Notes: generated from the sequence alone by a model not told the origin. Shown: positions 1 to 39,081, numbered from the stretch's first letter. The stretch: DNA of 64,000 nucleotides from Schmidtea polychroa (GCA_044892525.1 CM097886.1:131502001-131566000), one strand, 5' to 3'. Numbers and translations: made by a program.

Positions 1-1961
1 GACAATAGACATAAAATGCAATATTGATGGCAATACAATAATAGAAGCACCAAACACAAAAAATCAGACAAAATACCGTAGCACAAGACAGGAAGCAATA
101 AATACATAAGAAACTACAAAAAGTACCACCAAAATCAAACAATAAATTAAAATAAATATAAAATAAGAATATTAATTGAATAAAATATAGGCAAAAAAAA
201 ATAGAATTAAAAGAAGCAAAAAACATTAAATACAAATAAGAATAGGAAAGCGACATTAAAAATACGAAAATTACTAATAAGCGACATTAGATAAGAGATC
301 ATTCCGAAATTGCACCAAACAAATCGGTTAATTGAGTTGAATAACAATCCACGGCATCTGTTAATGATAGGTGTGAAATAAGCTGCTAATGATCCGATTG
401 AGAGTCGGTTAAAGTAAACTCAATAGTGATAAAAACAGTCTGCGAGTTTATCGATGAATGTCAGAATTATATAATTTAATTAGAATATTTTTTTCATTGA
501 CTTATATAATTTATTTTACGTATTTCATGTATGAATAAATAAATTAAGAGATAAAAACAGTCTGCGAATTTTTCGATGAATGTCAGAATTATATGATTTA
601 ATTAGAAAACTTTTTTTGACTTATGATTTACTTTGCTTATTTCGTGTAACAATGTAATTAACTATCTTAGGTAGAGTGAAACCCTGCAATTATTTAACGT
701 ATTTTATACATGGCTAAATTAATCAATTTGCTTAAACAATTTTAGGGTGAGTAAAATATATAATTTATTTAAATATCGGATCGGAACATCATCTTAGGGA
801 AAAAAGATTTTATTTTGGTCTAATAAGTCTACGGCCCGGTATCGTCAACAATGCGAGATCCCTCCGGTATGAATGTATGGGGAATTCATTTTCTTTTTCT
901 GTGTTTGTTGTCAGCGATCATGGAAACGGTCAGACATTATAGAACTTTACTACATATAATTTTTGTTGCATAAATTTACCATCTCTACTTGTTCACTTTA
1001 GAAATGTCAAAGAACCCAACTGCGACATCTCTTCAACCTTGTTTCTCTTGTGCGGATAAAAACGCGGTGGTCAAAACTCTACAGACGCAGATAGGTCTGC
1101 TAAAGAAGAAAACAGACCATCTTGAAGGCACGTGGTTCACACCCACTCAAATGAATGAGGTGCAAATGAAGCTGTCACGACCAGAAAATAACGAAGAAAA
1201 TAGCCAATGTGCCGATAGCGGAGGAGGAAAATGTCATTCCACATCATCATTACTCAATGGACCCAATTCGACCAGATAGTAAGGCTTGCACCAGTTGTGT
1301 GGATACTCTGCTACTACCCACGACGCCTGACGTCAGCATCATAGGCACTAGTCAGGCGGTTCCAAGTCCCGTCGTCTTACCAGAATCGGCCACTCTCACG
1401 ATATCGCAGAAAACTTCAAAACGCCGACAACCGACGCGAGCCGAGCGAAATAAGAGGCGGAGGATGGTACAAGCTGAGCGAGATTGATAGCTGAAAATGT
1501 CCAGGCAGCTTTACAAACCCAGACAGGGGTGTCAACCGTACCGACTCGCTAGTTTCGAATGGTGCCTCCTAATAATTCATGGGAAGAAGATGCTGCTGAT
1601 TTTTTCGACTTGGACGAACTCTTTGCTGGCACGTTTCCGTCTACTTTGTGATTGAATGCGCCTATGTTATAATCCAGTATGAGCAATCCGGGTAATATGT
1701 CTTTGACTCCGTGTGCTGTTTGAGATTTTCGATCTTGTGTAGTGGTCATTGACGAGATTCCTTCAATGTTTTAGATCTTGAAATAATTAATTATAGTTTC
1801 GGTGTTATTGTTGAAGTTATTTATTTTGATATGGGACATCCTGATAATGACGATTTCTAGGCGAATAACGTATTTCACTGAATTTCGAAGCGGGTGACGT
1901 AAGACCTTCTATCGGCCTCACATGCTTCATCTTATCTGGCCATCATGGCACAGTACCAACA
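1..1961 (+). mobile_element. E1: right part of a giant TG...CA element; left end lies outside the window
   Basis: A-rich head (1-300), EGTWF-family gene (1004-1651), truncated CGTAAGnCCTTCTATCGGC motif (~1898-1915), and terminal GTACCAACA at 1961 like the other family ends. Confidence 0.65.
1004..1651 (+). pseudogene. EGTWF-family protein, frameshifted
   Basis: PCFSCADKN...LEGTWFTPTQMNE, basic KRRQPTRAERNKRRR, and C-terminal SWEEDAADFFDLDELFAG, spread over three frames; homologous to 28835 and 38332. Confidence 0.8.
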
Positions 1962-2139
1962 TGATGTAAATCATGGGTGTCATGATGAGAAAGTAATCGT
2001 GTGGGTTTTTGATTAGCGGTCAGCATAAAATGGTGCCAGGTTATTTCTTTTTCTGGACTATCATCCCTTGATAACGAGCAAACTCGTGTTGACATAGTCA
2101 ACTACTCAACAATAATAATAATATCTTTGTTCTAGAGGA

Positions 2140-2660
2140 GTTCTGTTCTAAAAAATAGATGATGAATCGTGTGATAGGTCTTTGTTTTAAAAATAAATGA
2201 TGCATTGTCTTTGTTCTAAGAAGGATGAATCATCAATGAGTCATACATATGGGGGAGTGTGCAAAAAAGATGGAAAAAGTACCCCATACTTAAACGATGA
2301 GTCTTTATTTAAATGTCTCTGTCTTTGTTTAAATATCTTTATTTAAATGTCTTTGTTTAAAAATGATGAGTTATGCGTACCTTAGTGACCTTGTTCAGTC
2401 ATAGACTCAGTGATCGGATTAAAAATGTTACTAAACATAGATGACGGCTCACCGATGAGTCATATGTATTGTTCCTGAAAATATGTGAGTCATCGATGAC
2501 ATCATATGACCTTGTTGTTAAACCTAAAATGGCCCTGGCCTAGTTACTAAAAATAGAAAGACCTTGGTGAGTCACGTGACTTTGACCTAGCTATCATGGT
2601 TACTATAGATGAGTCGCGGGGGGTAGTGCAAAAAATGATAAACGATGAGTCATGGAGCAC
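2140..2660. repeat. Cluster of TGAGTCA, GACCTTG and TTACTAAAAATAG motifs
   Basis: About five perfect TGAGTCA plus near-matches in ~450 bp. Copied at ~44400-44915; isolated motifs also at ~8038 and ~42647. Confidence 0.7.
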
Positions 2661-3401
2661 ACTTCCTCCTACTAATATAAATTAAAATGATATTTGAGAA
2701 AAAGGGAGAAATAAAAATCTTGAATCATTCTATAAGCAATAACACCAGCTTTCGAGAAAATTAATTACAGATCGGAAAATTTGTAGAATAATATCAGCAA
2801 TTAGAACAGCTTATGATGTCTAAAGACACCGAACGTGACGTTTGCCTGTTTATTGTTGATGATATTTTACAATCTTGCATTTTTATTATTGTTGGGCACC
2901 AGGGGTTCGCCAGTCCATAAGCGGTGTAACTAGGGGTAGTGCCATAATTAATTGGATTTTTCCCAGATACCCAAAATGATGATATTCCCTCCGATGTACC
3001 CATGACGTCGAGCCATGTTGGTGATGTACACCGAGGTCGGAATCTGTGGGCAAGTGAGGCCCTGCGTTAGAACTACTCCCTACAGCATTTGCGGTACGAG
3101 TTCCATACTGCCATAGAAGGGCTTACGTTTCACAACTAATTCCTCGAGTCCAAGTGAGGTTACTTTATTTTGGTTACTTATTCACCCCAAAGTCTTAGAG
3201 TAACAGTCAAATAAAATAAAAATAAGTAAAGATTAAATAAACCGAAAACATTTATTACGAAGATCACAATTTACAAGCACATCAAAGAAAGGTAAATCAG
3301 CTCCCCTGTACATTGTTTGATTTTTAAAATTTTTAAAGAATAGAAAATAATAATAATTTTTTAATAAAAAGGGTTTATTTGTCTATGTGCGTGGGTGTTA
3401 A

Positions 3402-4593
3402 TTGGATTTGCATGCATCGAAAATCTATTTATTGATTTGTATGTGCGCAAAATTCGTCTCTCCCTCTGACCACGAACCTACTGCATGGAGTGCCCTATCA
3501 AAATTTTCTGTACTAACACTGGGATTAAAAATCTTTTCCGTGAGCCAAGTATATCCGTCTACTCCGGTACTTGCAATTTACGAATTCGTCGGTAACGCAC
3601 TCGTTTCTGTGGGAGTTTTCGTCGTGCGAAATGATGTTTTGGTGAATAACCTGTGATGAGTATGTTTGTAATGCGATATCTATGTGTGTTCATATTGCGC
3701 TCCGTTATTATGTCATCAAAATTTCGACTGCCACTTTCCCTTTCCTCATTTTATTATCTCGCAGCTGTTAAAGTGTAGTAATCAACTTATTTTGTCACGT
3801 TTATCGCGAGGGAAATTTAATAGGGAAGAAAAATTGCTGGAGATAGACATTGCCATTCCTACCGATGATGGATGACCTCATAGTCGCCGTATGTTTACAT
3901 GATTTTGGTGAAGATTGTTCCCTGACATATGATTCCTGTCGTATCGCGTCAGATTACCTAAATATTTGCCGAAATCTGCAAATGCCTATTTACTCCAGAC
4001 CTCGCCTATCCCCAAGGTAGTCTATGGTCGCAATCAAGTAATGTTTATCTCATATTCATCAGAACTCGGTACCAACTTCAATTTCCCCGAATTCTTATCG
4101 GATATTTACTGCCTGAATTTTGCAATGATTCCTTATCAGTGAACGCGATCAGATTTTCCACGAGCTTGCACAAGCAGATGGATATGTCATTTTGCGACTA
4201 CTCGTATCTACCGGTTAGCGATCAAACCGTTAAAAGTGCAAATTTGTGAAGAAAATTGGATTTATCGATCTACTACTCGTCACGGAAGCTATCCCCTCAC
4301 AAGATGAACAATTCGAAAAGAAAGGAAGATTTGTGTCCTTCGTGATATCCATCTAAACTCCAATAAAAACACTCTCTACGCTCCTATGGGAGGTGTTGAG
4401 CCAGAGAAACGATCATTTCTCGTTTATTTCACATTCATTCCGAATTTCGCTCAATTCCTGTACCCAATCATCCAGCAAGGCGATCTGTGCCCTATCGATA
4501 CGGGTATCAACAGTTCCAGACGCCCTCCCGGCTAATCGGCTCACCTCTCATCATCAATATAATTTCAAAGTAATTAAAATGATAAAATTTTAA
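3402..4593 (+). pseudogene. Decayed antisense gene of E2
   Basis: Protein-like stretches across frames (KLLEIDIAIPTDDG; MDDLIVAVCLHDFGEDCSLTY; QIFHELAQADGYVILRLL). The DDG motif recurs antisense in E5 and E6 (TDG in E4). Confidence 0.45.
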
Positions 4594-4950
4594 ATTATGA
4601 CAAACAATACGTAGGTCATTCGGATGGCAATCCTTCGTTCATTCATATCCTCACAGTCCTATGCTACCGCTACCTTGTGACCAATATCCGGTTGATTCTA
4701 CCACAACTATTAATGCCACACCATAATTTCTACCATAAAGCTCCATTTTCATATCGACATCAAAATAAAAGTGAAATATTACTCTATATTATAATAAAAT
4801 AAACCTGTTCGTGCTTCCTTGTTGAGCTGAAACCGCTAATTCACAAATAGAATGGTAGGTAGTTAATTAATTTTGTCCTGTCGAATATAAGTTTAGATGT
4901 TCGTCGCACGGTAGTACCTTAAGTGAAATTTACCGCTCTATTTCCCCATA

Positions 4951-4980
4951 TACTGGATTCTGTCCAATCAGAATCCAGTA
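4951..4980 (-). promoter_or_regulatory. CCAAT box in the loop of a perfect 12-bp inverted repeat
   Basis: TACTGGATTCTG-TCCAAT-CAGAATCCAGTA, at the same relative position as CTGATTGG in E4, E5 and E6. Confidence 0.6.
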
Positions 4981-6099
4981 AGTTGTATTATTATATTTTT
5001 ATTCCTTTTTCTCCTTTTTTAATCTTTTATTATATTTTCTTTATTATTTTTGCAACTTTATTAATAAATAATATTTAATATTCTTATTTTCTTTTCTTGA
5101 GGTTTTTGGGGTATTTTCTCGTATTTTTTCTTATTCTATTTATTTTTTATTAACTATTATTTCTATTTCTAGATTTGTTATTATTATGTTAATTTTTCGG
5201 TTATTTTTTTTGTTATTTTCTTTTTTTTCCCTTCCTGGATGTAATTACTTAGGGTTTTTATTGTTATTTTATTTTGAAATATCTGTTTCCCATCTACCCT
5301 ATTTTACTCTTTTATTTGGTCATTTCCCCTTAACTTAATTCCTATGTTTGTCATTTTATATGGTGTTTGGGTCCCACCGGGTTATCAGCCCAACATTATC
5401 AATGAATTAATAGAAAATATTTTGAAAAAAATATGATATAAAACATCTTACGAAAATAGAACTAATATAGAACTAAATTAGAACTAATAATAATTTGGAT
5501 CTGCTAGAATTTGTCTCTTGTTTAGAATGTAGAGATACGTGTTTTGGATATAGAATATAACCAACCCATTCAACAAATATTAATTGAAAAAGCCTCAAAT
5601 ATTACAAAATTTGCAATATGTTCATGATGAAAATGATTCTTGGAATAATAATGGGAATGAAAAAATAGTATAAAAGTAAATTGAAAAAAAAATCAGTAAT
5701 TATTAATCGAACAAAGCTATACCATCTTAGAGGAAAAACTTATAGAATTTTAATCATAAGGTTATTTAATTCTAATTTGTTTGTAGATTTAAAAAAAAGT
5801 AATCGCACACCCAACCACGAGAAGCAGCATTTCAGTCTGTCTTGCTCGTTGGGATGAAACTTTTAGAGGGAAAATTATTAGAAACTTTAGATCATCCTTG
5901 ATCTAAGCGATCTCGCAAATTTCGAGAAACACCCTCCTTCTTGATCCATTTCTTTATACAGCACTGAGAGGTATTAGTTCCAGCGTTTGTTCTTATTCTG
6001 AGGACGGTTCGAATAACCGATTTCCTTACTTTAGTATTTAGCCTAGAATAAATATACGTTTTTGGACTTTTAGCAATATCACTCCATCTTATTCAAAAG

Positions 6100-13338: not shown

Positions 13339-15394
13339 TGTTGGGCTGATTTCTAGACCCAAACTTCTAATTGTGACTGGAATGCGTAGGTACACAACAT
13401 GCAAAAAGCAAAAAGTATAGTTAAATATTAAAAAAATACACCAAATAAACAATAATAATTAAAAGAGAAACAACAAAAAAAAGGTAAACACAGAAATTAA
13501 ATAAAATTATACAAAAGCAAGAAGTTACGCAAAATCTAACTCAAAAATAACCAAATAAACATAGAGTTACAAAAAACAAACTCGAATAACTTAAAAGATG
13601 GTAAAAACAGCAAAAATTTCCAGAAAAACCCAGAACATTCCATAAAAATGGCGATGACCATCATAAAAGCTACCTTAAACAACAAAATTTAGAAAAATAA
13701 ATAAATTAGTAATAAAAATAAAAAATCTTAAAAAGAAATTCATAAAACATCAATTAAAATAAAAATTAAATTAAAAGTAATATAGAATGTTCTGGAACCG
13801 TTCCAAATCCATCATGGACGTAAAATTAACGAAAAATAATTAAAAAATAAAAACAAAAATTATGGCACAAAAATCGCCATTAAAAATATCAAAATTACAA
13901 AATAGAAAATTCTGGAATAAAAAGAATTCGATTTTGTTTTAATGCATCAATACATACACGTGTACAAAATAGGTATATATACCGACCCATTTTAGTCACA
14001 ATTTAATCTTTTTGTATGCCAAAAATTTTCGCAGCAAATTTAAACAACACCGAAAGTAAGGACTATTGTCTGTATATTTTATAATTGTTATCTTATTATT
14101 CTGTTTTATTATAGTGATTATTATAGTGATTATTATTGAATTATTCTTTTGCCTTTTTATTCTACTATTACGAAATCAGAGTGACCAGCATCGTCGTGGA
14201 CGGGTTATAGTCACGATGCTGATCAGCCTTGTTTCCAACTAATAGTCCACATGCACAAATTCGGGTCTACGACCCTACATGCACTAAAATTTCAATTTTT
14301 TTTTACCGGAGGTCGCCACGAACAAATGGTTTCTAACCAGGAGTAGGGCGGGTAAATCCATCCCGGTAGTTGGTATAGTCACAGGGACTATGCGGACGAA
14401 ATAAAATTTGGGAAAGTAATCGCGGGAAACATAATAAGGCCTATCGTACCGTATTCAGTTGAGTCGGAAAAGTAGGAAAATTTTAATTAATTCGACCTTT
14501 CGGTGAATGACATACCAAAAATAAACACTTAATTATTCTATAGGAAATATATCACTAGGAATATCTAAGCGGGAAATATCCCAGACTCAAATCATCACAA
14601 AGACTCTTGGTAGTCGGCTAATTGCACAAACTATTATTCAGTATGCCCAAAATTAACTACCCTTAATAGACTCTATTAATATTATTCACAATTTTATTCA
14701 ATCATAAATGTAATCTAGTTCACGTTCGATGGTATATTATTATAAACTAAAATCATTTCGTAAAATTTCCATACTTACCTTTATATGTATTGAAATTTAG
14801 CTTATATAAAATCTTTAAAGATTTTTTTTGTGTGTCCTAATAATACTATCATCTTTAGGATCATTATTATTACCATTATTACTTTTCTAAAAATTACATT
14901 AATAAAGTGTATATCATTACCATATCATATATAAGTTTCTTAATATATATTTAACTTACATTATGTTTAGAAAATGATAAATTATAAATTTTCTTAAATG
15001 ACCCGCCCCCGAAATATACATTCATTACCCATTGCACAAATATCCTAAATTAACTTATTTTAATATATATTTGGATTGTAGTGTTGGGCTGAATCGAAAA
15101 TTGGATTTTTTTGAAAAATCGTAAGGAAAGGAAGTAGAATATTAAGGAAAATAAAAATAAATAAACGAAACTAAGAATAAATTAGGATAAGACATAAGGA
15201 AAAAATAATAAGTAAGATATAGGAATAAAAATAACAATAAAAATAGGAAAAAGTAAATAAAACGATAAAATGACGATTAAATAATGCGGAATTTAATAAA
15301 TAATAAGGAAATTAAGGAAAAATAAAAAGAAAATATATTAAAAATAAGGAAAATAACCGAAAAAACAGAAAAAATATATTAAAATTTAAAAATA

Positions 15395-15445
15395 AGCGGT
15401 AATCAATTCTGATTGGTCCGCAGTTATAAGAAGTTACTATATAAG
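15395..15445 (+). promoter_or_regulatory. Putative Pol II promoter of E4 (inverted CCAAT plus TATA)
   Basis: AAGCGGTAATCAATTCTGATTGGTC then TATATAAG 22 nt later; same sequence and spacing at ~35982-36033 in E6. Confidence 0.6.
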
Positions 15446-15901
15446 CAGGCATCAAATTCAGAAAATTTAGTGTTAATCTAAAAACTATACAGGTAAATAA
15501 AACTGCAATATTACTGAGTGTTAATCTAAAAACTTTACAGGTACCCGACGATAGTGGACTAAAATTAACCCAAGCTTGACAGACGACTAACAGTGAGAAA
15601 ACTTAACTAAACAACGACCGAATTTCAGATCAGTGAGCCAATTCAAAACCGACGATTTCTATTTTTCGATTCAGTCTAATTAGATAACTCAACAGTAAGG
15701 AGATTCTATTTTGGTTTTAATTATATTACGAATAATGGTATTCATGAATATATAATTTAAATTTTAAAGTTAATCTCCTTCATTTGATCCGTAATTTTGG
15801 TTAAATGTTTATAGGTATTTTATTCATAATAAATGATTTACGATAGAGTTTTTATGATGCTATTTTATTATTATTATTTTTGCTTACATGATTGTAACAT
15901 C

Positions 15902-16050
15902 TATGAGTAACGTGGTGTTGAGACACTCCGTGTCATGATATGAGGTGCCTTCGGGAGCTTTGCCGGTGGACTTGGAGTGCTTCAATCACGCAGTTGGATT
16001 GGGCCAGAATTTGAAGGCTTCTTCACGGGTCCAATCGCTGAAGGACTTAA
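15902..16050 (+). pseudogene. RWTWS-exon family (copy at 36445-36600)
   Basis: NVVLRH..CHDMRCLRELCRWTWSASITQL vs NVALRYPCHGVRCPRELSRWTWSFSITQL; several differences are synonymous in this frame. Confidence 0.5.
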
Positions 16051-23042: not shown

Positions 23043-24069
23043 ATGACTCAAGATCAAACGGAAGCCCCAAATAACGAAATAAACATCAGTAGAATACATA
23101 GAGAAAGATGGGCCAAAGTGATGACACAATTATCAAATCAAACACGAAATTACCTCGAAGAAGCGAGAGAATGGGAAAACCACCAGTTCCAGTGGTTAGT
23201 ACAGAATTTACGGGCGGAGGCGGAGGCCGAGGCCTGCAAAAGAGCCGCCAAATGGTCGGCATTAGAAAGTACCAGGCAAGAGGCACACGGGCATTACCTG
23301 AAGCAGCTGGTACAGGAGTCAAGAAAAAGACTAACGGATGAGAATAAGAAGCGGGAAATAGAAAAACAAAAGGAGGAAAGAAAGACCCGCCAACTATTAG
23401 CAGAAGCCAGAAAGTGGAAAAAACAACATCGACAAATCCAAAAAGAGATGAGAGAATTGCCGCAGAGATTGGAACACGAGAGTGATCAAGGGAAATGGGA
23501 AGAAAACCTGGATCAGAAAGAAGAGCTAAGAAGGCTCCGGAAAGTAGCAGCTAGAAGTCAAACCTGGCAGACCAAGGCCATGGAATTTGAAAGGCATCTG
23601 GCCATGAAACTGTCTATAAAGGAACAGGAGAATGATCCTGCAACAGTCAGGTAGAATCGTCGAACTCGTAAATAAGGTGGCAGACCTTGAAAGAGACAAT
23701 AACGGCTATAAGGGGGCACTAGAACAGAGGAATATAGTGCTAGCCGGTAAGAACAAGAAGTTGGAGAACGAGAGAAAGATGTATGACGAAAATATCAAGA
23801 ACCTCGAAAAGGAGATCAAAAAATGGGAAAACGGCGAAAAAGCGGAAGAGTTAGAAAAACAGATCGAGGTAAGGGACGACGAAACCAGGTATCTAACATA
23901 CCTGTTGGACGAGGAACTCAATGTGTCAAGAGCGCTAAGAGACGAAGTTCAGGAGCTCAGAGCGCAGATTCCCCGCTACTACATCCCATTCGATCCCATC
24001 GCAATCCAACTACAAACGTCAATAGAAAGCGATGAAGGGTATGTAGGTCAGGAAGAGACCTTTGTATAA
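23043..24069 (+). CDS. Uncharacterised coiled-coil protein, probably one gene split by a frameshift (23043-23654 and 23632-24069)
   Basis: E/K/R/Q-rich helical sequence with spaced Trp; the two ORFs overlap by 23 nt. Confidence 0.6.
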
Positions 24070-24243
24070 AGATAAATAGAAAAGATAAAAAATATAAAAA
24101 TCGGGACCTGTATCCCAACAAAAAAATTAATAGTACGATAAAAATATTTACGGGACTGTAACCCCAATTATATAATTACATATAGATGTATACGTATAAG
24201 CCGCACTATAGCGCAATTATTAATTATGTATATATTATAGAAA

Positions 24244-24963
24244 ATGAACACTGAAAACGGACGACCTATCATAACATCTATAATCGAGCTAGAAGAGGGA
24301 GAAATTGAAGTAGAAGTGGAGAGGAAGAAAACTATCAAGGAAGAATTACAAGAGGAGAGACAAGAAAACGAAAGATTAGTGGAAAGATGGAGAGATAATC
24401 GAAAAATGATTAAAGTATTGAAAAAAGAATATACCTTGTTAGAAGAAGTAAAGAAAGAGGTAGAGGAGGAAAATGAATGGCTTCACGATCAAAGAAAACG
24501 AGGGAGAAATTGGGAGAAGATCGCGGAAGAATTATGGCAGGAAAGAGCCAGTCTCAAGGCAAACGAAGTGATCGAAGATTACTGGAAGATGGAAGCGAGG
24601 AAACGACAGGAAACTATCAGGGAACTAGAACACCAACTGGAAGTAAAAGTACAGGAAAACGCAGAAATGGAAAAATGGAACAATAAATATCGAGAAATAG
24701 AAACAAAACGGCAGAAACAAAACTCAAAGACAAACGACCCAGAGGAAAATGATTTCCTACAATTGGAACTGGAACGGAACCTGAAAGAAAAGAAGAAGGA
24801 GATAAAAGCCTTGAAAAGAGAGATAAGACACTTGACAGACAAGGTCCAGGAGAAAGAGAGACAACTAGAAATGTTGCCGGAACCCCGACATAGAGTCATT
24901 AAAGCGGAGTCTAAATTAATGCGAATCCGAGAGAAAAACCCAAAAAAGAAACGACAAAATTAA
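24244..24963 (+). CDS. Uncharacterised coiled-coil protein, 239 aa, intact
   Basis: ATG start, heptad-rich, basic C-terminus, TATA-like intergenic region upstream. Confidence 0.7.
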   Translation: MNTENGRPIITSIIELEEGEIEVEVERKKTIKEELQEERQENERLVERWRDNRKMIKVLKKEYTLLEEVKKEVEEENEWLHDQRKRGRNWEKIAEELWQERASLKANEVIEDYWKMEARKRQETIRELEHQLEVKVQENAEMEKWNNKYREIETKRQKQNSKTNDPEENDFLQLELERNLKEKKKEIKALKREIRHLTDKVQEKERQLEMLPEPRHRVIKAESKLMRIREKNPKKKRQN

Positions 24964-25007
24964 AACCGACAAAAAGCGATGTATATAAATGTGTATAAAA
25001 TTACTAA

Positions 25008-25682
25008 ATGTATATCAGTAGTATGAGAAACAAACCGATCATAATAATCCTGATGATGACGATAGTCCTTGATCTGACAAGGCGACAACCCGTAAAGCCC
25101 GAAATTGAACATATTCGAGACAGCAGAAAATCCCACCAAAAGACCGAACCAACAGCCAAATCATGCATCTATCCAAGTATCATAAAAACCCGTCTTACCG
25201 ACAATATTCGAGCTACCCGAACGTACGTCAACAATATCAGATTAATGTGTAATAACCACCCCATGTGCAAAATTATTGATAAAAGAATCCTGGACCAAAT
25301 TCACCAACTCGATCAGCTAGAACAACAGGTCCAACATCAAGAAATATAAAACCCAGTCGAACCAGTAGAAATCGCCAAAGAAATAAATGACCACCATGAA
25401 CTCCTCTACGTGGTAATCGTCGAAACCACCGTAATCATGGTAATCATCCTCCTAAAAATCCATAATATCTACCAAGTTTGGAAGAAAAGTCACCCCGTAA
25501 CGGAAAGATCGTCTCGAAGATCCCAAGAAGCTAATATGGCTGACGTAATCCAAGAAAATCTCCGACAACGAACCTCCATCGCAGAAACAGTCAGACCGTC
25601 CACAAGTCGCCGAATATACTACAACATCGAAACCCAACAACCAAATCACCCATCATCAACGGCAACTGATCAACAAACATAA
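25008..25682 (+). pseudogene. Small type I membrane protein in env position, one in-frame TAA at 25347-25349
   Basis: ORFs 25008-25349 and 25410-25682 share a frame with no other stop; hydrophobic N-terminus IIIILMMTIVL, heptads, TM-like LLYVVIVETTVIMVIILL, cytoplasmic tail. Confidence 0.6.
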
Positions 25683-25907
25683 CATTTCGAACTGTAACTA
25701 TTGACAAAATTTTTGCTGTTTTATTATCTTCTGATGAAACCGGTCACCTTAAGTGGCCACTGCTTGCTTATATTTGTCATTTTCTCTGTTTAATTAAAGT
25801 ATTTTTTTTGTTTAATTTGATTTTCTGTTTGGGTGGATTTTGATTGAGATTATGGGTTATACCGAAAGAAGGTATGATCCAAATGTATGATATTATGTGA
25901 ATTGAGG

Positions 25908-25937
25908 GACGCAATTTTAACGGGCCCCGGAGTGATT
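25908..25937 (+). promoter_or_regulatory. Possible non-canonical polypurine-tract region
   Basis: TGAGGGACGCAATTTTAACGGGCCCCGGAGTGATT directly before TGTTGGG; resembles Ty3/gypsy pre-3'-LTR motifs but is not purely purine. Confidence 0.35.
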
Positions 25938-28834
25938 TGTTGGGCTAAACTTCGAGTGTCGAAAAATCGGGCTAAGAACGAATAAATAGGATAAAACAAA
26001 TTTTCAATAAAATCGCGAGAAATATAAGAATAACTAAATCAGATAACAATAAAAGAAATAAGAATATAAAATAAGAATATAAAAGAAATAAAAATAACTA
26101 ATAAAACAATAGAATGCATAAGGCGAAATAAGGGGAAATTACCCAACACACATGGTAGGAAAAGGAAAAAACATAAAATAACCAAAACGTAAGAAATAAA
26201 CGAGAAATTTAAGAAAATAAAATAGAAATCCTCAAATAAATGTATAGGCGAATTAAAACAAAAATTATATTATGATAAAATGACAATAAACGCGCAGGAA
26301 AAACGGGAGGAAAATAATAAAAAAAATACTAAAATAAATAAAATATTAATACAAATAGGAAAAGTTATTAAAACCCAACACATTACAATAAAAACACCTA
26401 AATAATAATAAATAAAAAATATCACAAACAAGGCGCGTCCTGATTGGACGAAGAATAATATATAACTAAAGAGAAAAATCTGTGGAGTACCACTTTTAAT
26501 CGCTACTCTACAGGTAAAAAATTTTTTTATGTTGACCACTTTTAATCGCTACTCTACAGCATCTTGAACACCATTTTGACTACGATTCAACGAAAACAAA
26601 ATCGACTACCAGTATCTAGCGGAACCAAAAGGAAAACGATTTAGTAGAATCCTGAACATTTACCATTTTTTGACACTCTCGAAGGATATTATTTGGTAAG
26701 TATGGTAATTGATTTAAATACTTTTTATGATGATGATATTAAATACTTCTATGAGTTTGATATTGAATAAATTCTTTTAGTATAATAAATGTTTAATTTT
26801 CGAAAGATGTTCCTCTCTCTATATGGTGCTGGCGACGATGTCGTCTGGGAATCCAATATGATGCGGGAAAATCAAATAAATCCGTAGAAGAAGCCACGAG
26901 GATGGCGACTAGAAGTGACATTGAAAATCGGGATGAAGCTAGATTTATAGCAATAGAGATGATTGAACGATTGTGATTACTGTGGGACGGCATCATATTC
27001 GAGACTCAGACGGCGTGGTCGCCAGACAAGTAAATTTTATTATAACGATTAATTTTCATAAAACCATGCCATTTATTTAATCATATTTATTATAAAAAAT
27101 CTTCTGAAAGTGACGAATCGAGGAGATCGAATCGTCCTTCCTGGCGGTCTAAGGACGGTGGCAGCGATGATTGCCGTCCTTAGGTGGGTCAGGAGGGGTG
27201 AGGACATCAGGCGGACGATATTAATACTGCACGGGGGATTCTTCCACCGAGAGACGTCTGTGTTCGGCATAGAAAATACTGTTTTTGGAGAAGATGAGGC
27301 AAATAAAAAATCCACAGAGATTCGCCGGAGAAATTCGAAATACAATTCTTTAAAATTAGGTATAATCCTAGTTTAATAAGTCCAGGTTCGACATCGTTAC
27401 GTCTTAAGTCCCCGAGTTACAGTGGGCTGAACACGAAGGGATCATAGTCTTCGGTTGCAAACAGAAAATTCCAACGTGATTAGTGTAAACTGTCACCAAG
27501 CTTTTCGGTAGGGATTTGGATCGCTAAGGAGTTAACGACAAAATCCATCATCGGTGCACTTTTAAGTTGAATTGTTGATTCTTAGGCTATAGATAAGGAT
27601 TGTTTTTCTGAAAATAGAGTAAATAAATCCTGAGAAATTATCAGAACACTTACGATAGATGCGAGGGAAGCCGTTGTCGAAGTTATCAGATAACTGCCAA
27701 ATGAATTTCAGTCTGATTATACCCAACCGAATTAGATGACTAAAGGGAATCTGAACAGTGAGAGAGAGCGATAACCGTCATCACCATAGATACAGTGAGA
27801 GCGTTGACAGACGGATATCTTAAGTCGACCACGATAGTAGATAAATTATCAGCTCCAATTCTCCAGTGATTTGTCGCGTAATGGGTAAGGCTGACACGCA
27901 TAACGAATCAGGTAGAGATTTCTAAGAGTCCGGATCTTGATAATACATGCCTACCAGCACGTCATATGGAATTCCCTCTCAGTATGCCGCCAACCAATCC
28001 ACATAAAAAGAAAATTTGTTCGGTGACCTAATCATTACATAATAATGACGAAGTTAAACGAGATAGTAGCATTGCGTGTAGGGACGACAAGGGAGATCGT
28101 ATCCCCGTAAATAATTTTGCTAGGAGTATCAGACAGCCACTCTCGAAACATAATCCGAACCAGACACACCAAGACATAGTGGTCAACAGAATAGTAGAAA
28201 TTGACAATACACAAGCATGCATTGCAACACATCATATTCAGCACTCAAGTAAATGACAGTATTTAGTCACAACCACATCCTGTGTTAGAGTCGTCATGAC
28301 AACCTCACGGCAAAAATTTGAACTAAATAAAATTTTCAATTCACGTTCAAAGTTCAAATAAATATATATATTATGATTCCCTTTTCAATTTCGATCAATA
28401 TTAAAATAATGCAAAGAAGCAGGGCCGAAATTTTTGTTATTTACACAAACTTAACTTCATAGAACTTAGTAATGAGGAGTAGACTTATCAATATTGGACA
28501 ATAAGAAATATATTAATGGTGTTAAAGGTTATAGTACTCGAACGATGGAACATATGAAGGGGGGGTCAAGCCCGTAAAATTATACCGAGTGATGAAACTA
28601 TAATAAATGAATTCTGTCTAAAATTCCCGTTTTCCTCTCATAAAATTGTAAGGAACGAGTGAGTTAACTTGAATGTTTGAGTTTGAATGAATGCGAGTAT
28701 CGATCAACGACACGGGTGTGTAGATCACTATTGAATAGTTTGATTTGGAAACTTGTAAACCTCATATGCGAAATGCAAATAACGTTCCAGAGAAACTTTT
28801 ACGATAGACAATAAATTTTTCTTTTAATCTTTAG

Positions 28835-29593
28835 ATGAATACCTCGACCAGCTCTGGAAAAATTCCTCGTCCTTGTTTCTCCTGCGCCGATAAAAATGCA
28901 GATATCGCGCAGCTCCATCTATACATCGGGGCTCTAAAGAAGAGAATTGACCTCTATGAGGGTACGTGGTTCTCCCCGCCACAAATGAAGGAGGAGCGAA
29001 AGAAGATACTCCGGTTGGAACATTGCAGGGATAGCCTGCTGGAGGAGAGCCATTGTCAACGGCTAACCATTAAAGCGCAATCCGAAGCCCTCCACAAGGT
29101 CTATACGGAGGCAGAATTGGCCAAAAGGGTTCGAGAATTTCCCGTCTCAGACAGTACTAATGTGTTTCCCCCGCACCACCAGTCGTCGCAAGCATCTACA
29201 TCAAATTGCCAAGGGCACGGCTCGTATCTGCCGCCAATTCCAGCTCCAGTATTATCCGGTTATCGGCCCTTAGCAGGTGGTTCTTCCGACCCGATCTTAG
29301 CTCCAGTGTTGGTGGCGCCCTCCGCCGCATCCGATGCGAATCATCCGGCGCCTTCTCGTAAAAGGAAACGGCCAACTAGGGCTGCCAAGAATTAAAAACG
29401 CAGAGACGCGATAGCCGCATTGGAAGCTTCATTATCAGTGGCCCAGTCCACCCTTAAAGAGATTTCAAGTTCCCACGTGATTCCGGCCAAAGAAATATTT
29501 CGAATCGTGCCGGCCGATGGCATCAAATATCTCGCAGACCGTCGCTTGCCGGTGGATATCGACGAAGTATTCGCCGACGGAGAGGTTTTTTAA
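28835..29593 (+). pseudogene. EGTWF-family protein, ~252 codons, one in-frame TAA at 29393-29395
   Basis: RPCFSCADKN...YEGTWFSPPQMKE...RKRKRPTRAAKN*KRR...DIDEVFADGEVF. Confidence 0.8.
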
Positions 29594-29888
29594 CAACTAG
29601 AGGTGACTACGGTGTTGGTCTACCGGGAAGAATGTTTTCGCGACCTCCTCTCTAGTGTATGACAAATTCTCATTTTCCTTAGTGATCGTGTATTTGATTC
29701 TTGTGCAACCTTTGTTATTATATAAATTAATGTATGTCGTATGATTAATATAAGTTTTTTGATAATTAATGAGTTATTTTACGAGAACGATGAGCGGAAT
29801 ACCCGATTCGATTGGTGAACTGAATGTATGACATTTGCGTGAAGGTCGTCCTTTTGGACCAGGGTCGACCCGAGAATGAATGAGTATG

Positions 29889-29990
29889 GGTAAGTCCTTC
29901 TAAGGCACCTTAGAACCTGTACCGCGAGTGGGTTAAGAGTAGTCCTAAGGCAGGGGCTCACCTGTTAAACTACTCCAACCCGTGTGAGCA
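29889..29990 (+). other. Conserved structured segment near the right end of the elements
   Basis: TTCTAAG-GCAC-CTTAGAA hairpin; GAGTAGT/ACTACTC stem enclosing GCAGG-GGCTCA-CCTGT; homologues at 39361-39450, 3050-3127 (-), 20283, 33040 and 1898. Confidence 0.55.
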
Positions 29991-30216
29991 GCACCAACGT
30001 GGGAACACCGCCACGGGCTCACATGAGGGAATATTAATAAGGTCATGTGATGTATGTTGGGTAAATCTGAGACCGATGTATGGGATTGCATGTCCGACTA
30101 CGAAAATATTTCTTCTCCCCTTCATACACCAACAATATATAAATACAATTCTATGATTTTTACGTTTTTATTTCTGATTGTTTCTCTGACACAATTATTA
30201 AATTTATTATAATTAT

Positions 30217-34139: not shown

Positions 34140-35600
34140 AATTAATAAGACACAGCTGAAAAAATTAATATAGTTTATTCGCAATAATTAAAAAGAAAAA
34201 AAACAGTCATTCGTGGAGTGGTTTCGCTTGAGACAACAATGTCAATAGCAAATCTTAAAATGTCAATTGCAAATAGATATAATAATACAACAACAAAAAT
34301 AATATTAAAACAACAAAAAATGAATTTGAATAAAGCCGCTTTGCAAAAATAAGAAAGAAAATTCATAAAAATCAGAAACAAATAAAAATTTTATCAAAAT
34401 TTCGAATAAAAATCCAGAACAATCCATAAAAATGCCGAAATCCATCATGGCCGCCAAATAACCTAATAAAAGTTTAAAAAAAAAATATTTTAGTTAAAAT
34501 ATAAAAATATTTTAAAAAAATTGCAGAAAACAATTTAAAAATTAAGAATTAGATAAAATTTAACATGGAATGCTGTGGAAATTCCCAAATCCATCATGAA
34601 GGTGCTTGTTTTGCTTGTCGCAAATTTGCCTGGCAGATTTTCTTGGGCTGCGCTGGTGTCTCGGAGATGCGGGTGCGCTTATGATTTCCGCCATTGGTCG
34701 TATCTGGGCGATTACGTCTTGATCCGCCGCTTGATGATGCACCTGAGTCTCTAGATTCAAATTTTCAGACGAAGAGCCCGTATCTCGGTTTAATCTTTGG
34801 AACTCTGAAGCTGTAGCTGCTGTATCAGCTGCAGGCGCTTTTGTATTTCTGCGGGACAAAACCACGTCCTTTGAACTTGGTGAGTTTCGTTCGAAGCTCT
34901 TCTACTTGTTGTTGCGTCTGCTCCCGATCCTGGTGTAGATTTTCCATCAGTTTGAACACTGAATGGGAAAATTGAATAACAGTGGCATTTATAAAATTGT
35001 CAATCAATTTAGTTTATCAATCATAATAGGGAAAATAAAAGGTAACAATCCCGGATATTCCGCGCTCTAATCTGTAGTCACCGTTATCTAGGTCAAACCT
35101 CCACAGTACCCTTGTCCTGGCGTCTCCATGTGGCGGTCTATCACCTTCTTAACTAAAACACTAAAATAAGGCTATATTATATTCCATATTGTTATAAAAA
35201 TATAAATAAACATAATAGTTCTGAGACATGCATAAATAAAACAAAAAAATCAACGCTAAACTAAAGTTAAAACAAGGATTTCAGTTTCAATAGAGTCACC
35301 AAGATTCGAGTCTTCGACACTCCGTGATAATAGTACTTGAGGTGTATCATAATTCACGGTGTACCTTTCGAGTGCGTCACAGCTTCCTGAGCCCTGTTGT
35401 AGTAGGCCTTTGGGATTCGTTCCATGGGTGTTCTGGACCGCGTTAGATGGCGGCCAGCTTGTCCGCATTGCACAACAGCCGGGCGGTTCCGTTACACGAC
35501 AAATTCGTATTAATTACTTAGAATAACTTTACGTATGAGTTTCAATTAGAGTTTAAAATGTGTGTATTTAATGACAAAATTTAAATATTAAAAGAAGAAT
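34140..35600. mobile_element. Rearranged E3-type fragments in mixed orientation
   Basis: A-rich head (+) homologous to 13400-13830; EGTWF exon on (-) at 34600-34975; weak RWTWS-exon similarity (+) at 35310-35450. Confidence 0.55.
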
Positions 35601-37039
35601 TCCCATTTTTTGTATTTTTATAAAAGTACATACATAGTATACATTTTTTAAGTAATAATAATGTTGGGCTGAGTCGGAAAATTAATTTTGGAAATTAGGA
35701 AAGTAAAATAAGCAGGGTGCGAAGAAAATAAAAATAAAATAAACAAATTTACGAATAAAATAGAATAAGATATAAGAAAAACAATAATTAGAAAATAAGA
35801 ATTAAAACAAAAAATATAAAAATAAGAAAAATTAAAATAGGACAATAGAATGACGGAAAATAACGTAAAATGCAGTAAATAATAAGGAAATTAAAGAAAA
35901 TAAATAGAAAATATAATAAAAATAAAGAAAATAGGAAGAAATAACTAAAAAACAAGAAAAATAAATTAAAGCAACAAAATTAAGCGGTACTCAATTCTGA
36001 TTGGTCTTCACACATAAAAAATTATTATATAAGCAAACACAAAAATTATTAACTTACAGTTAATCCAAAAACTTTACAGGCATTACTAGCGACTTATAGA
36101 TCACTCAAGAAAATTAGTAGCAGCAGAATTTCCAGGATTCGAAATCGAAAACAAATTAGCCTTCAGAAAACGACCGACCGAATTTTTGACTCAGCCTCAA
36201 CATCGATATTAGTGGTAAGGATAACTTTTATGTGGAATTTGTCTTTTAAGTTAATGATAATCATGAAGTTAATTTATAATTAAAATTTTGTTCTGTAACA
36301 CATGGCTTTTCATTTGATCCCATAATTTTAATGTTTGTATATTTAGATGTTTATTTGGTTGAATATCGTTAACATTAATAAATAATTTCATTCAGAGTTT
36401 TATACTTTATTCAGTAACTACCATTTTATGAAATTTTATTTGTTGAGAAACGTGGCGTTGAGATACCCCATGTCATGGTGTGAGGTGCCCTCGGGAGCTC
36501 AGCAGGTGGACATGGAGTTTTTCAATCACGCAGCTGATTCGGGCCGAAGTGTGGGGGCTTCCTCACGGGTCCGTCGCTGAAGATGCGACTAAAATATATG
36601 AATAATACTCTAGAAAGATAGCAGCTATAAAGTGATTGAAGGAGTAGTCGTATGGGTCCAGTGAAATGCAGAAAATTTTGTTGGAGAGTTCGCACAGTGA
36701 TTGAGGGTGTCACGCTACCGAATCATAGGATCATCTTTACCAAACTTAGATTGTCTCCATCATCTGAAAGATCTATGCAAGAGTTTCTGAAATTCGTCTG
36801 AACATTATTATTGTCATATGGGGCGTATCATCTGTGTTCATAATTACACTCAAAATTGTTCCTGAAATTTTCTGTCTCCAGACCTTCGTAACTGCTATTT
36901 TCATCGTCTATATCCCTCGCGTACACTCAACTTTGATACGTTTTCATAAAGAAAAATAAATAGTTTTAAAAATAAAAACACGAAATACTATCGAATCTAA
37001 TCTAGAAAAATTTATTTCCAAAACAATCCAGCATGATGT

Positions 37040-37483
37040 TCAGTTAGCACATCGAATACAAAATGCCTGCAGTAAATGGTGCAAGATGAGATGTAGCTGA
37101 TACGATAGACCATCCAAAGGAGAAAAATCCAAATCTTGAGTGTGGCATAAAGAGTGGTAGAATATCCGCATTTTGTCGAGTTGTCTTCCAGCGATAGTTG
37201 AGATATTTAATAAATTTCCAAGCCGATGTTGATGGTTTGCGCCCGTTGACGATGATAGAAATCCACGATGAGAGTTTACATCAGCCGAGATTGTAGTTTC
37301 CGTAAATAGGCATACAGTGAGAATCGTGCGACATGTGGAATATTTGTGAAACTGGCATATACCAAACTCATTAGATAATGTAGCGACATTCAAGTCTGAG
37401 AGTAGAGCAAACACACGAGAGTTCGCATGACAAATACACACAGCACACGGATGTGCATGCATTGTAGCTACGATCGGTAACAT
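37040..37483 (-). pseudogene. 5' part of the antisense gene of E6
   Basis: 147-aa ORF starting with Cys/His-rich HPCAVCICH; SDDG motif downstream at 36756-36767. Confidence 0.4.
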
Positions 37484-38331
37484 TCATATGAGAGAGATAA
37501 GGTAATTCTCACGTAAATATCCATAGTAGTGAACTTTACCATATGCTATGCCGATGGAGATTTTCATCTCTGTGAGACAATAACGGATAAGTGTGTTAGG
37601 ATAGCAGCTGACCTGAGGCCACTACACTCAAGTGGTCATTTCTCCTATATCACTGTGATAAAAATTTGTTTATGTTATTATAGAAATAAACTGTATAATC
37701 AGTAACCGATGATCTGAGGTACGAAAACTCTCAAAGTTCACTTATTGGAAAATCGCCAATTAAATATTTGAATAATTAGAATAATTTGAAATTGGGCTTT
37801 ATAGATAACACTGACAATCTTGTTCAATGGGCGTTATAGATAATCATATAAATTTTAGATTAATTGTGATAATTAATCTATCGAAATTTTTATTAAATAT
37901 TATTATATGATTATTATTATAGTATTATTAAATATTACCGACCCTCAGACCGTCAAGTATAGGAATTGTCGAGTGGGGAAAAGGGGAAAGAGTTTTTGGG
38001 GAGGTAACTAGCGCCGATATCGTGCAATTGTTGATCTAAAATGAAATCCGGTATTCGTAGAAAATTCTTGGAGTTAGTAAATGTGCCCCATCGAAAAATC
38101 TTCCGGTTAATTCATTTTGCATTCGACAAGTCAATGGGATTTATCAATAACTAAATTTTGTAAATAATGTACGGGGTAGAAACGAGTTGTCGTCTGGGGG
38201 GAAAAATTCCCTTACCCACGTAATCTGCTCTTCTTTTTCTGTTGAACATCTAAGCTAGTAACTGAGTAGTTGTACCAAATGTATGACATTTCGAACATCA
38301 TATCTTAATCTCATCTTTATAGCTATCCAAC

Positions 38332-39081
38332 ATGATGCCAAATGCCAAGCCCGTTTTACGTCCTTGCTTCTCTTGTTCAGACAAGAATGCAATAATCAAG
38401 GACCTACAGACCCAGATTGGACGGTATAAAAAGAAAATAGACGAGTTGGAGGGGACATGGTTTAGTCCCGCCCAGATGAAAGAGACCCAGAAAAAGTTAT
38501 ATCGAAGCGAACATTGTCGTGACGCTCTGATCTCCGAGAGTCGTGCACAAAGGAGTTTAATAAAGGAGCAATCCGAGGCCCTTCATAAACTATATCTCCA
38601 AGCAGCAACCACCCGGAAAATCGCAAAAATCCCTATCAACGAAGCCGATAATCTTTTTCCAGTGCACCACGATACCTCTGCCAGGTCTTCATCTCCGTTC
38701 AAGAAGTCTTGCCGTGAGTGCGTGGAGACCGAGCTCTCTCCTCGATGTCCAGATCTTATCTTCCCCGGGACTAGTAAAGCACAGCCAAACACCGCGTCTT
38801 CATCTGCCGTATCACGAATTACTTCAGTAGTTTCAAAACCTAAACGTCGACAGCTGTCGCGTACCGAACGCAAACGGAAACAATGAGAGCGGGCATCCAT
38901 CAAAAAAAGCACACCCTCGACCGTCACCCCTGTCAACAGCAACAGCAATCCCACCGTGGTCGATCTGACGACCGGGATCCCAGGGCGAGTCATCTCCGCC
39001 ACCGGGGTAACATGGGAGGAAAATGCCTCCGAATTCTTTGATTTAGACGAATTATTCGCTGACACTGAGTGGGAAAAATGA
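38332..39081 (+). pseudogene. EGTWF-family protein, ~249 codons, one in-frame TGA at 38884-38886
   Basis: RPCFSCSDKN...LEGTWFSPAQMKE...KRRQLSRTERKRKQ*...WEENASEFFDLDELFAD. Confidence 0.8.

Follow-up and report, generated by a model that had tools for sequence, protein, structure and literature searches.

The window analysed here, a stretch of 64,000 nucleotides from Schmidtea polychroa (GCA_044892525.1 CM097886.1:131502001-131566000), contains a small gene characterized by a PC[FL]SC motif, a run of heptads and an EGTWF motif, found at 1004, 17338, 28835 and 38332. Mutual tblastn comparisons of these four copies gave E values of 3e-22 to 7e-43, far above chance, and by sequence they are clear homologues. 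Copy A (1004..1651, plus strand) has a shortened second helix and follows a splice acceptor whose AG ends at 1001; the left end of its enclosing unit was not found. Copy B (17329..17484, plus strand; acceptor AG ending at 17328) is cut off just past EGTWFTP, after about 48 codons. Copy C (28835..29593, plus strand) comprises about 252 codons, and its ATG abuts the acceptor AG at 28833-28834. Copy D (38332..39081, plus strand) spans about 249 codons, with an acceptor AG ending at 38322. The full layout, including linker, basic tract and acidic-aromatic tail, is present in three of six copies (1004, 28835 and 38332); a preliminary description of this DNA had also assigned such a tail to three copies. 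The conserved helical part, at about 110 aa, extends further than that description proposed.

The remaining two copies are distant TWFxP paralogues. Paralogue E (19715..20175, plus strand) has a basic tract and lacks both the CxxC and the acidic tail, while paralogue F lies at 34560..34958 on the minus strand, its acceptor AG ending at 34959. They share 60% DNA identity (E 1e-17) and carry TWFxP only. In a profile search with 858 targets, 19713 and 34600 gave E values of 0.001 and 1.4, and against a profile built solely from outside relatives 0.21 and 0.9; they form a distant sister pair weakly tied to the main copies. Since the similarity between E and F begins at the acceptor, an upstream coding exon is implied for E. 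The six positions given in the preliminary description were right and their repetition is far beyond chance, but only four are clear EGTWF copies.

All six copies are broken, by stops at 29393 (C), 38884 (D), 17482 (B) and 19795 (E), by stops and two frame changes in the 1004 copy, and by frame changes in the 34600 copy. Nevertheless, their codons carry a clear record. In all six pairs of the four cores, pS was 0.67-0.97 versus a pN of 0.08-0.33 (Fisher p at most 5e-4); in the 16-codon tail motif, 1004 and 38332 differ at 3/0/10 sites at codon positions 1/2/3, and the 19713/34600 pair shows 11/5/20 and 10/5/16. Strong past purifying selection on the codons of core and tail, suggested earlier for the motifs, is confirmed at the sequence level. 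The opposite reading, in which there is no real gene and the frames opened by chance in a GC-rich repeat, could appeal to the six broken copies. It is barely credible: the codon pattern, synonymous saturation with little amino-acid change, rules out chance frames, and the acceptors in register with the copies and 14 outside relatives also speak against it.

The gene core is dispersed in very many copies. Its bin reached a summed contig depth of 36,166 in run X1 and 52,432 in run X5, compared with depths of 17.7 and 29.2 for exact-match flank contigs in X1; the bin of a conserved 3' motif, described below, reached 44,124/47,561.

Terminal units, promoter and splicing

A left end of the TGTTGGG type, TGTTGGGCT, occurs seven times in the window, versus 0.18 expected. 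Together with the right ends GCCCAACA, CACCAACA and CCCCAGCA it delimits units that begin with TG, end with CA and have an inverted repeat of 6-8 bp. The unit at 25938..30134 (plus strand, 4197 bp, TGTTGGGCT...CACCAACA) carries a promoter, a leader, a second small gene, copy C and the 3' motif. It is part of a larger interval, 22700..30134 (plus strand), which starts with a second, near-identical left end at 22700, contains ORFs with coiled coils and membrane segments at 23016-25682 and is flanked by ATAT/ATAT; we read it as a putative internally deleted element. The 35662..39627 unit (plus strand, 3966 bp, TGTTGGGCT...CCCCAGCA) holds copy D between flanks ATAA/TAAT, one base off, and is colinear with the left part of a sister unit at 15082..17484 (plus strand), which holds copy B. 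A related solo unit at 2890..5395 (minus strand, 2506 bp, TGTTGGGCT...GCCCAACA, flanks ATAA/ATAA) has the 3' motif and no EGTWF gene, and is duplicated at 45143-47666; the gene is therefore dispensable in cis. The four-base flanks match in two of the three distinct intervals with both outer ends, with a chance of 0.007 per match that rises to 0.068 when the two flanks consist of A/T alone; the flank of the inner end at 25938 has no match. The earlier placement of all copies inside LTR-like units holds for 28835 and 38332 and partly for 17338, and found no support for 1004, 19713 and 34600.

Because of the TGTTGGG...CA ends and the matching flanks in two intervals, the 4.0-4.2 kb units are most likely giant LTRs. 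Pfam revealed no gag, RT or integrase in 189 window ORFs (39 plus 150 of 219 GC-filtered shorter ones), and none of the units in the window has a PBS or PPT beside it, so no full element links the units to a retrotransposon. Paired direct repeats around gag-pol were likewise not found in the window, as expected if the copies are solo or deleted. The source is probably a very abundant LTR retroelement family of the Gypsy/Burro type, and the window would represent a graveyard of solo or deleted LTRs of several subfamilies.

A CCAAT box (CTGATTGG) and a TATA box lie at 26441..26467 (plus strand) in the 25938 unit, and the pair is repeated at about 35998/36026 and 15410/15438. Both boxes were found in three of seven left-end stretches examined and CCAAT alone in one, while AATAAA or TATAAA precedes the 3' motif in three of four first-family stretches. 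These suggest a Pol II promoter and a polyadenylation signal within the repeat. A strong splice acceptor precedes every copy: all five on the plus strand rank among the best 0.1-3.8% of AG sites in the window, and the sixth, on the minus strand, has a pyrimidine run of 0.79. A predicted GT..AG intron of 2139 nt (26696..28834, plus strand) would join an ATG-free leader to copy C, with an alternative acceptor at 26806. One public contig of run X1 joins 26693 to 28834, which corresponds to the GT(26696)..AG(28834) junction with one mismatch; the joint is seen in a single contig from one of four runs, a run of unknown kind, and the shorter side of the match spans 30 letters at 80% likeness. Such a spliced junction in a DNA-like run would suggest an RNA intermediate. 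Of two putative RNA runs, X7 follows the DNA profile and X8 is almost without cover, which speaks neither for nor against expression. Within the intron lies a second, unrelated small gene (26807..27376, plus strand), high-copy, decayed and probably of two exons. A tandem duplication may be all that lies behind an apparent 47-nt "intron" in the leader (about 26514-26559).

The conserved non-coding 3' motif (29867..30067, plus strand) combines a GTAAG donor-like site with two hairpins and is located 150-170 nt past the AATAAA-like signal, with the right end about 245-260 nt further on. Copies lie at 39353-39445 and 2955-3150 (minus strand), more distant ones at 20276-20490 and 33036-33252, and a partial one, seen by eye, at about 1897-1915. 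Over 10 strand tests its folding z-scores ranged from -2.6 to +0.75, which is modest. We rejected a reading of this motif as an antisense coding exon, since the conserved blocks fall in inconsistent frames and the indels are not triplets; inspection by eye gave no support for a PBS, a ribozyme or an SRP-Alu mimic. Rfam returned no hit at the gathering score in the window and none at E<=1 in 26000-40000.

Outside relatives and predicted protein design

In a profile search of 1.84 billion proteins, 14 of 15 hits shared the TW-x-x-P core. These fourteen relatives are exons in other animal gene predictions, and 11 of them are fused to 11 different unrelated domains of animal host type, which fits a repeat exon picked up by gene finders. 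Such domains also suggest that the host is an animal, of flatworm type, rather than a microsporidian or fungus. The fifteenth hit, P0015, was rejected as a coiled-coil match without TW-x-x-P. Word-indexed protein searches yielded no relative from 67 candidates with a single copy as query, and four matches, all already-found relatives, from 4214 candidates with a profile. The same search of longer proteins gave none in 7999 and also missed P0001, P0013 and P0014, and is hence mute on fused forms. Atlas offered no usable match to copy D or P0002, and viral contigs contained no relatives: a viral contig match (L001) was due to chance, with the motif absent, as was a metagenome contig match (L002), where EGTWF lies within an unrelated 382-aa ORF.

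No Pfam family matched 11 members above its cut-off, and fold searches of BFVD and PDB found nothing at E<=0.001, only generic coiled coils with Z at most 6.0. Homology to a known host or transposable-element domain, which would have spoken against the proposed regulator, was thus not found in Pfam, PDB or BFVD. The literature considered on planarian Gypsy elements and LTR ORFs does not describe the protein, and Grohme 2018/Repbase may already annotate the LTRs. From these searches, the family appears to be previously undescribed and unannotated, with no Pfam, PDB or fold match.

Modelling suggests a conserved design in which a parallel coiled-coil dimer, kinked at GTWxxP, is followed by a linker, an arginine-rich helix and an acidic-aromatic tail. 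For residues 8-120 of the outside relative P0002, the homodimer model scored 0.59 (best of three controls, 0.01), with runs agreeing in at least 81% of contacts and pLDDT of at least 79. In microbes, 21 of 30 solved pairs reached the dimer mark, compared with 0 of 23 single chains; in eukaryotes, 17 of 29 pairs did so (7 of 16 for animals), compared with 0 of 30 single chains. Of the seven eukaryotic pairs that had no older solved relative, only one passed. The pass may therefore reflect likeness to solved coiled coils. The CxxC, which the preliminary description included in the family layout, is absent at the aligned position in all seven outside relatives aligned; it is thus not family-defining, and by alignment it is lineage-specific.

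Arginine is abundant in the basic tract (up to 10-11 Arg per 15 residues in relatives, 5-7 in the window copies), which is modelled as a helix about 55 residues after the coiled coil. A bZIP factor was rejected, as the basic region is not directly N-terminal of the zipper and Pfam bZIP_1 appeared in 1 of 11 sequences only (E 0.038). On the basic tract of P0005, Pfam REV gave E 0.0013 and 19.1 bits, versus a cut-off of 22, in one of 15 proteins. The protein has a nuclear-type basic tract and no membrane segment. Class-1a NES-like strings occur in the tails of two of seven outside relatives (P0002 and P0013); none was found in the three window tails by pattern scan (1004 by eye), and the regex also matches many non-conserved places.

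Acidic-aromatic tails recur in five of seven outside rows without alignable sequence, the most acidic 39-mer having a net charge of -7 to -9. Under the relaxed Kotha-Staller activation-domain rule (a 39-aa tile with charge -13 to -8 and W+F+L of at least 6; PMC10550315, eq. 3), whose precision is about 0.2-0.7 (PMC10550315), two of 11 sequences passed, 38332 and P0003, that is, one of three window tails and one of seven outside relatives. The copy D tail passed in four tiles; 32 of 2000 shuffles and three of 221 background stretches also passed the relaxed rule. The stricter rule (PMC10550315, eq. 1) was passed by 0 of 11. This qualifies the VP16-like activation tail proposed earlier. The tail also contains a LIR-like FFDL, and PPxY is found in three of seven outside rows and in none of the window copies.

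Possible roles and comparison with known systems

The best reading of these features is a nuclear autoregulator borne by the LTR, with a transcription activator somewhat ahead of an RNA exporter of the Rev/Rex/CERV kind. The gene would be an accessory gene within the long terminal repeat of an abundant LTR retroelement. The CCAAT/TATA promoter near the left end would produce an RNA with a non-coding leader, which would be spliced to alternative predicted acceptors, one for the second small gene and one for the EGTWF gene. The product of about 250 aa would dimerise via its modelled parallel coiled coil, kinked at GTW-x-x-P, might enter the nucleus and bind nucleic acid through the Arg/Lys-rich helix, and could recruit host co-activators with its acidic-aromatic tail, acting as a Tas/Tax-like positive feedback switch on element transcription. 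Homology, selection, high copy number, unit ends and splice signals are established; LTR identity, nuclear location and activation are what we infer here, and no DNA-binding fold was recognised in the protein; we assign the whole explanation a probability of about 0.4. The nuclear regulator comparable to Tax, Tas or Tat in the preliminary description thus persists as the best reading, although that account did not list a real rival of Rev/Rex type.

That rival owes its standing to the arginine-rich tract and the NES-like tails of two of seven relatives. It holds that an LTR-borne gene acts after transcription, like Rev, Rex or the CERV protein of Cer1: an oligomer would bind the structured 3' motif via the arginine-rich helix, and intron-containing element RNA would escape splicing, early polyadenylation or nuclear retention. 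The helical model of the tract, the sub-threshold REV match, an intron that most DNA copies keep and a donor-like, hairpin-forming motif just past AATAAA would all suit it, as would two precedents in the portions of the sources consulted, the HTLV-1 RexRE in the 3' LTR (PMC12789967) and the Gypsy element Cer1, whose spliced mRNA codes for an exporter (PMC10309623). However, the window tails lack the unspecific NES pattern, the folding z-scores are modest, the single REV match is probably compositional and there is no likeness to the CERV domains, as compared by description; we consider this role unlikely.

Slightly less likely still is an LTR-borne accessory with another job. It could be a coiled-coil protein associated with the particle, or an adaptor that counters silencing or manipulates the host; its basic tract would then be merely an NLS and its tail a docking motif (the LIR-like FFDL, or PPxY in some relatives). 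Besides PPxY, this reading can draw on partial accounts of Burro elements with apoptosis- and ubiquitin-related cargo (PMC6431247) and of planarian LTR elements under PIWI repression (PMC8532177), but PPxY is missing from the window copies, no family matches, and the order of dimer, basic and acidic parts seems to suit a nucleic-acid-directed regulator better. An improbable reading takes the units as DNA elements, either Polinton/Maverick debris or Ginger-like transposons, with the gene as cargo. Ginger elements do have TG..CA ends and four-base duplications, and the reading is also favoured by remnants at 8335-9327 that match pPolB (E 8e-5) and endonuclease VII (E 8e-4) in Pfam, each short of the cut-off, and by further remnants at 10178-11300. 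Polintons, in contrast, have AG..CT ends, long TIRs and six-base duplications, unlike the TG..CA ends, four-base flanks and 6-8 bp inverted repeat seen here; no AGTAGT site was found at any unit end in the window, and the spliced junction in an apparent DNA run points to an RNA intermediate.

Among known systems, the MMTV Sag ORF is located inside the LTR, and Rev is a helical hairpin, whereas the EGTWF protein is modelled instead as a long coiled coil. Sag is a type II membrane protein, unlike the EGTWF protein with its basic tract and no membrane segment, and is expressed from singly spliced RNA in the part of the source consulted (PMC12789967). As far as the same text describes them, HIV Rev, HTLV Rex and MMTV Rem resemble it in an oligomerising part, an arginine-rich helix and a structured LTR element (PMC12789967), and in an NES-like string, here present in some relatives and not conserved in window copies. 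According to the passages cited, the genes for foamy virus Tas and HTLV Tax are also small, regulatory, placed at the 3' end and expressed from spliced RNA, and Tas feeds back on its own internal promoter (PMC12789967); the Pfam, BFVD and PDB searches found no sequence or fold likeness to them, and in the present case the terminal unit contains both the gene and its promoter in full. CERV of C. elegans Cer1 is a lineage-restricted nuclear protein of a Gypsy-type element, made from a spliced mRNA and described in the available text with a zipper, an NLS and a Cys motif (PMC10309623). Similarly, the excerpted account of Grande GENE23-type plant ORFs describes conserved accessory ORFs with their own promoter and a nuclear product, of unknown function and proposed to be Tat/Rev-like (PMC7264820). 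Burro/GYPSM1, giant Gypsy-like LTR retrotransposons of planarians (PMC6431247, citing Jurka 2007 and Grohme 2018), were compared by description only: the sections consulted give thousands of copies, accessory ORFs, implied multi-kb LTRs, an internal region of up to 25 kb and a total above 30 kb, with cargo sitting either within the polyprotein or in an ORF upstream, in contrast to the spliced gene inside the LTR here (PMC6431247).

A broader and still doubtful proposal is that giant flatworm LTRs are self-contained, alternatively spliced multi-gene regulatory cassettes encoding new dimeric trans-acting switches. Because solo LTRs retain promoter, gene and response element together, scattered copies could act in trans; if so, hundreds to thousands of them could supply a trans-activator or RNA exporter, coordinating element activity and perhaps reaching host genes. 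In this lineage, genome size and rearrangements have been linked to Gypsy elements in the portion of the work consulted (PMC11410931). Complex retroviruses are distinguished by their regulatory accessory genes. For Gypsy-type retrotransposons, the literature considered offers CERV as the one tested case, along with several untested ORFs from plants; the EGTWF family, with its own promoter and introns in multi-kb LTRs, would be another independent invention of such a regulatory layer. Additionally, the LTR-borne repeat exon accounts for one type of chimeric gene model found in public protein sets.

EGTWF copies, past selection and outside relatives

Six-frame searches of the window recovered a PC[FL]SC-heptad-EGTWF arrangement at 1004, 17338, 28835, and 38332 (copies A, B, C, and D), which give strong mutual matches. 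Copies E (19713) and F (34560-34958, minus strand) match each other at 60% identity (E 1e-17), have in common with A-D just TWFxP and helical periodicity, and are matched by the profile at E 0.001 and E 1.4, respectively (858 targets). The six divergent copies of the preliminary description can therefore be kept as clear homologues for A-D, while E and F should, judged by sequence, be placed in a distant sister family of their own. None of the six copies is intact. C and D each carry a single stop (at 29393 and 38884, respectively), A has two frame changes as well as stops, B is truncated at 17482, a stop at 19795 interrupts E, and F contains frame changes.

In all six pairs of the A-D cores, compared ungapped over 36-98 codons, pS is 0.67-0.97 and pN 0.08-0.33 (Fisher p 5e-4 to 5e-16). 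Differences at codon positions 1/2/3 are 3/0/10 in the acidic tail motif of A and D, and 11/5/20 and 10/5/16 between E and F. This pattern, together with low pN, indicates that the copies were functional while they diverged, in separate subfamilies, and degenerated once inserted, which bears out the past selection suggested earlier for the conserved motifs.

Four public sequencing runs were aligned to 26600-31000 at 80% likeness. Summed contig depth, which is not a copy number, reaches 36,166 and 52,432 over the EGTWF bin in runs X1 and X5, and 44,124 and 47,561 over a motif that follows the gene by 300-450 nt; in X1, flank contigs with exact matches have depths of 17.7 and 29.2, and 1017 of the 1605 aligned contigs of this run are less than 95% alike. 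The depth ratio, near a thousand, points to a large dispersed family, and the similar peaks suggest that gene and motif travel together.

A profile of cores A-D matched 15 proteins at E<=0.001 among 1.84 billion, 14 of them with the TW-x-x-P core. In 11 of these 14 the core is joined to another domain, unrelated and different in each case (including neurotransmitter symporter, actin, convertase, tyrosine phosphatase, and hAT transposase), and all ten looked up are unnamed singletons; we interpret them as exons of the repeat that were incorporated into gene models of animals. A reverse profile from seven relatives alone recovers C at E 1e-25 and D at E 4e-21. The CxxC, previously listed in the layout, is missing at the corresponding place in these relatives and is not a common feature. 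One outside lineage (P0002, P0003, and P0013) carries PPxY, a possible WW-domain docking site missing from the window copies, right before the acidic-aromatic segment.

Host units and gene structure

The sequence TGTTGGGCT, found seven times in the window against 0.18 expected, forms the left end of LTR-like units whose right ends read CC(A/C)(A/G)CA. Copy C lies in the unit at 25938-30134 (plus strand), copy D in that at 35662-39627 (plus strand; flank match off by one base), and copy B in a unit at 15082, colinear with the latter. A gene-less solo unit (5395-2890, minus strand; duplicated at 47666-45143) has ATAA at both flanks, and the interval 22700-30134, beginning with a second left end 97% identical, has ATAT. 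A random TG/CA pair would have matching 4-base flanks with a chance of 0.007, or 0.068 with pure A/T flanks. That the units are DNA elements is improbable: protein-primed PolB (pPolB) debris lies nearby, but the TG...CA ends with matching flanks most likely mark integrase-made LTR insertions, not Polintons. Pfam scanning of window ORFs and inspection of unit flanks found no gag, RT, integrase, PBS, or PPT, so the tie to a complete retroelement is one we infer. Planarian Burro elements, described in PMC6431247 as having thousands of copies and multi-kb LTRs, would be obvious candidates for the parent.

In three units TATATAA follows a CCAAT box after 18-28 nt, at a distance of 330-520 nt from the left end. 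All six copies start right after a pyrimidine-rich AG, and the acceptor AGs of the five plus-strand copies score among the top 0.1-3.8% of AG sites in the window. The 25938 unit has an ATG-free leader that runs up to a GTAAGT donor at 26696. A single contig, from one of the four runs (X1; depth 58.7), connects 26693 and 28834 across one intervening letter, with 30 letters on its shorter side. Apart from one mismatch, this equals splicing of the predicted donor to the acceptor that precedes the ATG of C; as the X1 depth profile is DNA-like, the junction may come from reverse-transcribed spliced RNA. The intron contains a second high-copy small gene with its own weaker acceptor (26806). Downstream of the EGTWF gene follow an AATAAA-like signal, 150-170 nt, a conserved non-coding motif (a GTAAG site and two hairpins), about 250 nt, and the right end.

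MMTV Sag is a known case of an ORF within an LTR, and the present gene resembles it in this respect. What appears new is the unannotated protein family and its apparent placement, with promoter, leader, introns, and second gene, wholly within the terminal unit. An exact-phrase search of the literature found no paper on such an LTR-borne ORF or on planarian Gypsy solo LTRs.

Several further features accompany the units. The second gene (26807-27376) has a CDYC motif, a probable 80-nt intron, and listed variants mostly at third codon positions. An 81% conserved island in the units at 15082 and 35662 (15904-16043 and 36444-36582) reads as a distinct small gene, EVPSG..VD.E.FNHA. Between the left ends 22700 and 25938, 23016-25682 holds three ORFs of coiled-coil type (149-240 aa) and a pair of ORFs containing a hydrophobic, membrane-like segment; none has a Pfam match, and they may be accessory genes from the 3' part of the parent element. 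The solo unit is nested in a 4.4-kb stretch duplicated at 98.4% (1945-6314 and 44189-48581), a duplication that could represent a second element or an artefact of assembly (N gaps at 9926 and 42939). By eye, the left part of the stretch (2200-2660) shows several TGAGTCA (AP-1-like) sites, then a TATA-like run.

Predicted protein and possible role

An AlphaFold2 model of the outside relative P0002 (11 sequences; pLDDT 70, pTM 0.33) has a helix at 15-42, a break at GTWSSP, a helix at 48-89, and short helices to 107; after these come a disordered linker, the basic helix spanning 147-165, and helices in the tail. In a model of two copies of residues 8-120, the chains pair in parallel and in register (score 0.59, against at most 0.01 in three controls; at least 81% of contacts shared, pLDDT at least 79). 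Of solved microbial pairs, 21 of 30 pass the dimer mark, against 0 of 23 microbial single chains; among eukaryotes 17 of 29 pairs pass, but just one of the seven that lack an older solved relative, so the score may reflect resemblance to coiled coils already known. In family and fold searches no match stands out, and the regulator proposed in the preliminary description was not displaced by a known domain of another function.

Accessory regulators of LTR elements include Tas, Tax, Rex, and Rem (PMC12789967) and CERV (PMC10309623), and plant elements have additional ORFs such as Grande GENE23 (PMC7264820). The proposed nuclear regulator comparable to Tax, Tas, or Tat stands in part: the gene is real, was under selection, is high-copy, and is most likely LTR-borne, and a regulatory role would be plausible. 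The element's terminal promoter would yield a spliced RNA coding for a protein with a stalk that would dimerise, followed by a basic helix and a variable acidic-aromatic tail, a plausible design for a trans-acting nuclear regulator.

We put the probability of a transcription activator at about 0.4. The tail motif was under selection, acidic-aromatic tails recur in two outside lineages, and the tail of D satisfies the relaxed acidic rule of PMC10550315, as do 32 of 2000 shuffles; against this, 9 of the 11 sequences do not satisfy it and none satisfies the strict one. An RNA exporter of Rev/Rex type, like CERV of Cer1, is a rather doubtful candidate, drawing on the arginine-rich basic tract, an NES-like string in two relatives, the intron kept in the unit, a structured motif in the repeat, as RexRE in HTLV-1 (PMC12789967), and the precedent of a Gypsy element evolving such a factor (PMC10309623), but the window tails have no NES and the folding scores of the motif are weak. 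Another accessory role appears unlikely.

Other elements in the window

A second small gene family, with YIWYxIHxW and an AT-hook-like KRGRPRK end, occurs at 7341-7691 (plus), about 18799-19287 (plus), and 41430-41855 (minus), at 53% and 31% identity (tblastn) and with no Pfam match; one copy stands just before pPolB debris and another 430 bp before the 19713 paralogue. The debris, of Polinton/Maverick type, consists of degraded remains of protein-primed PolB at two places (8335-9327 and about 10178-11300), with a part resembling endonuclease VII, at Pfam scores below cut-off. A piggyBac element (about 20545-22442), bounded by TTAA on either side and retaining remnants of DDE_Tnp_1_7, is inserted just after the motif of the 19713 unit. 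hAT-like transposase remnants, recognised by eye and with no Pfam match, and a FLYWCH domain (E 4e-9) lie at 39971-40753, about 6720-6950, and 49102-49446, and a tandem array with units of 343-510 bp and 92-96% identity occupies 51923-55604.
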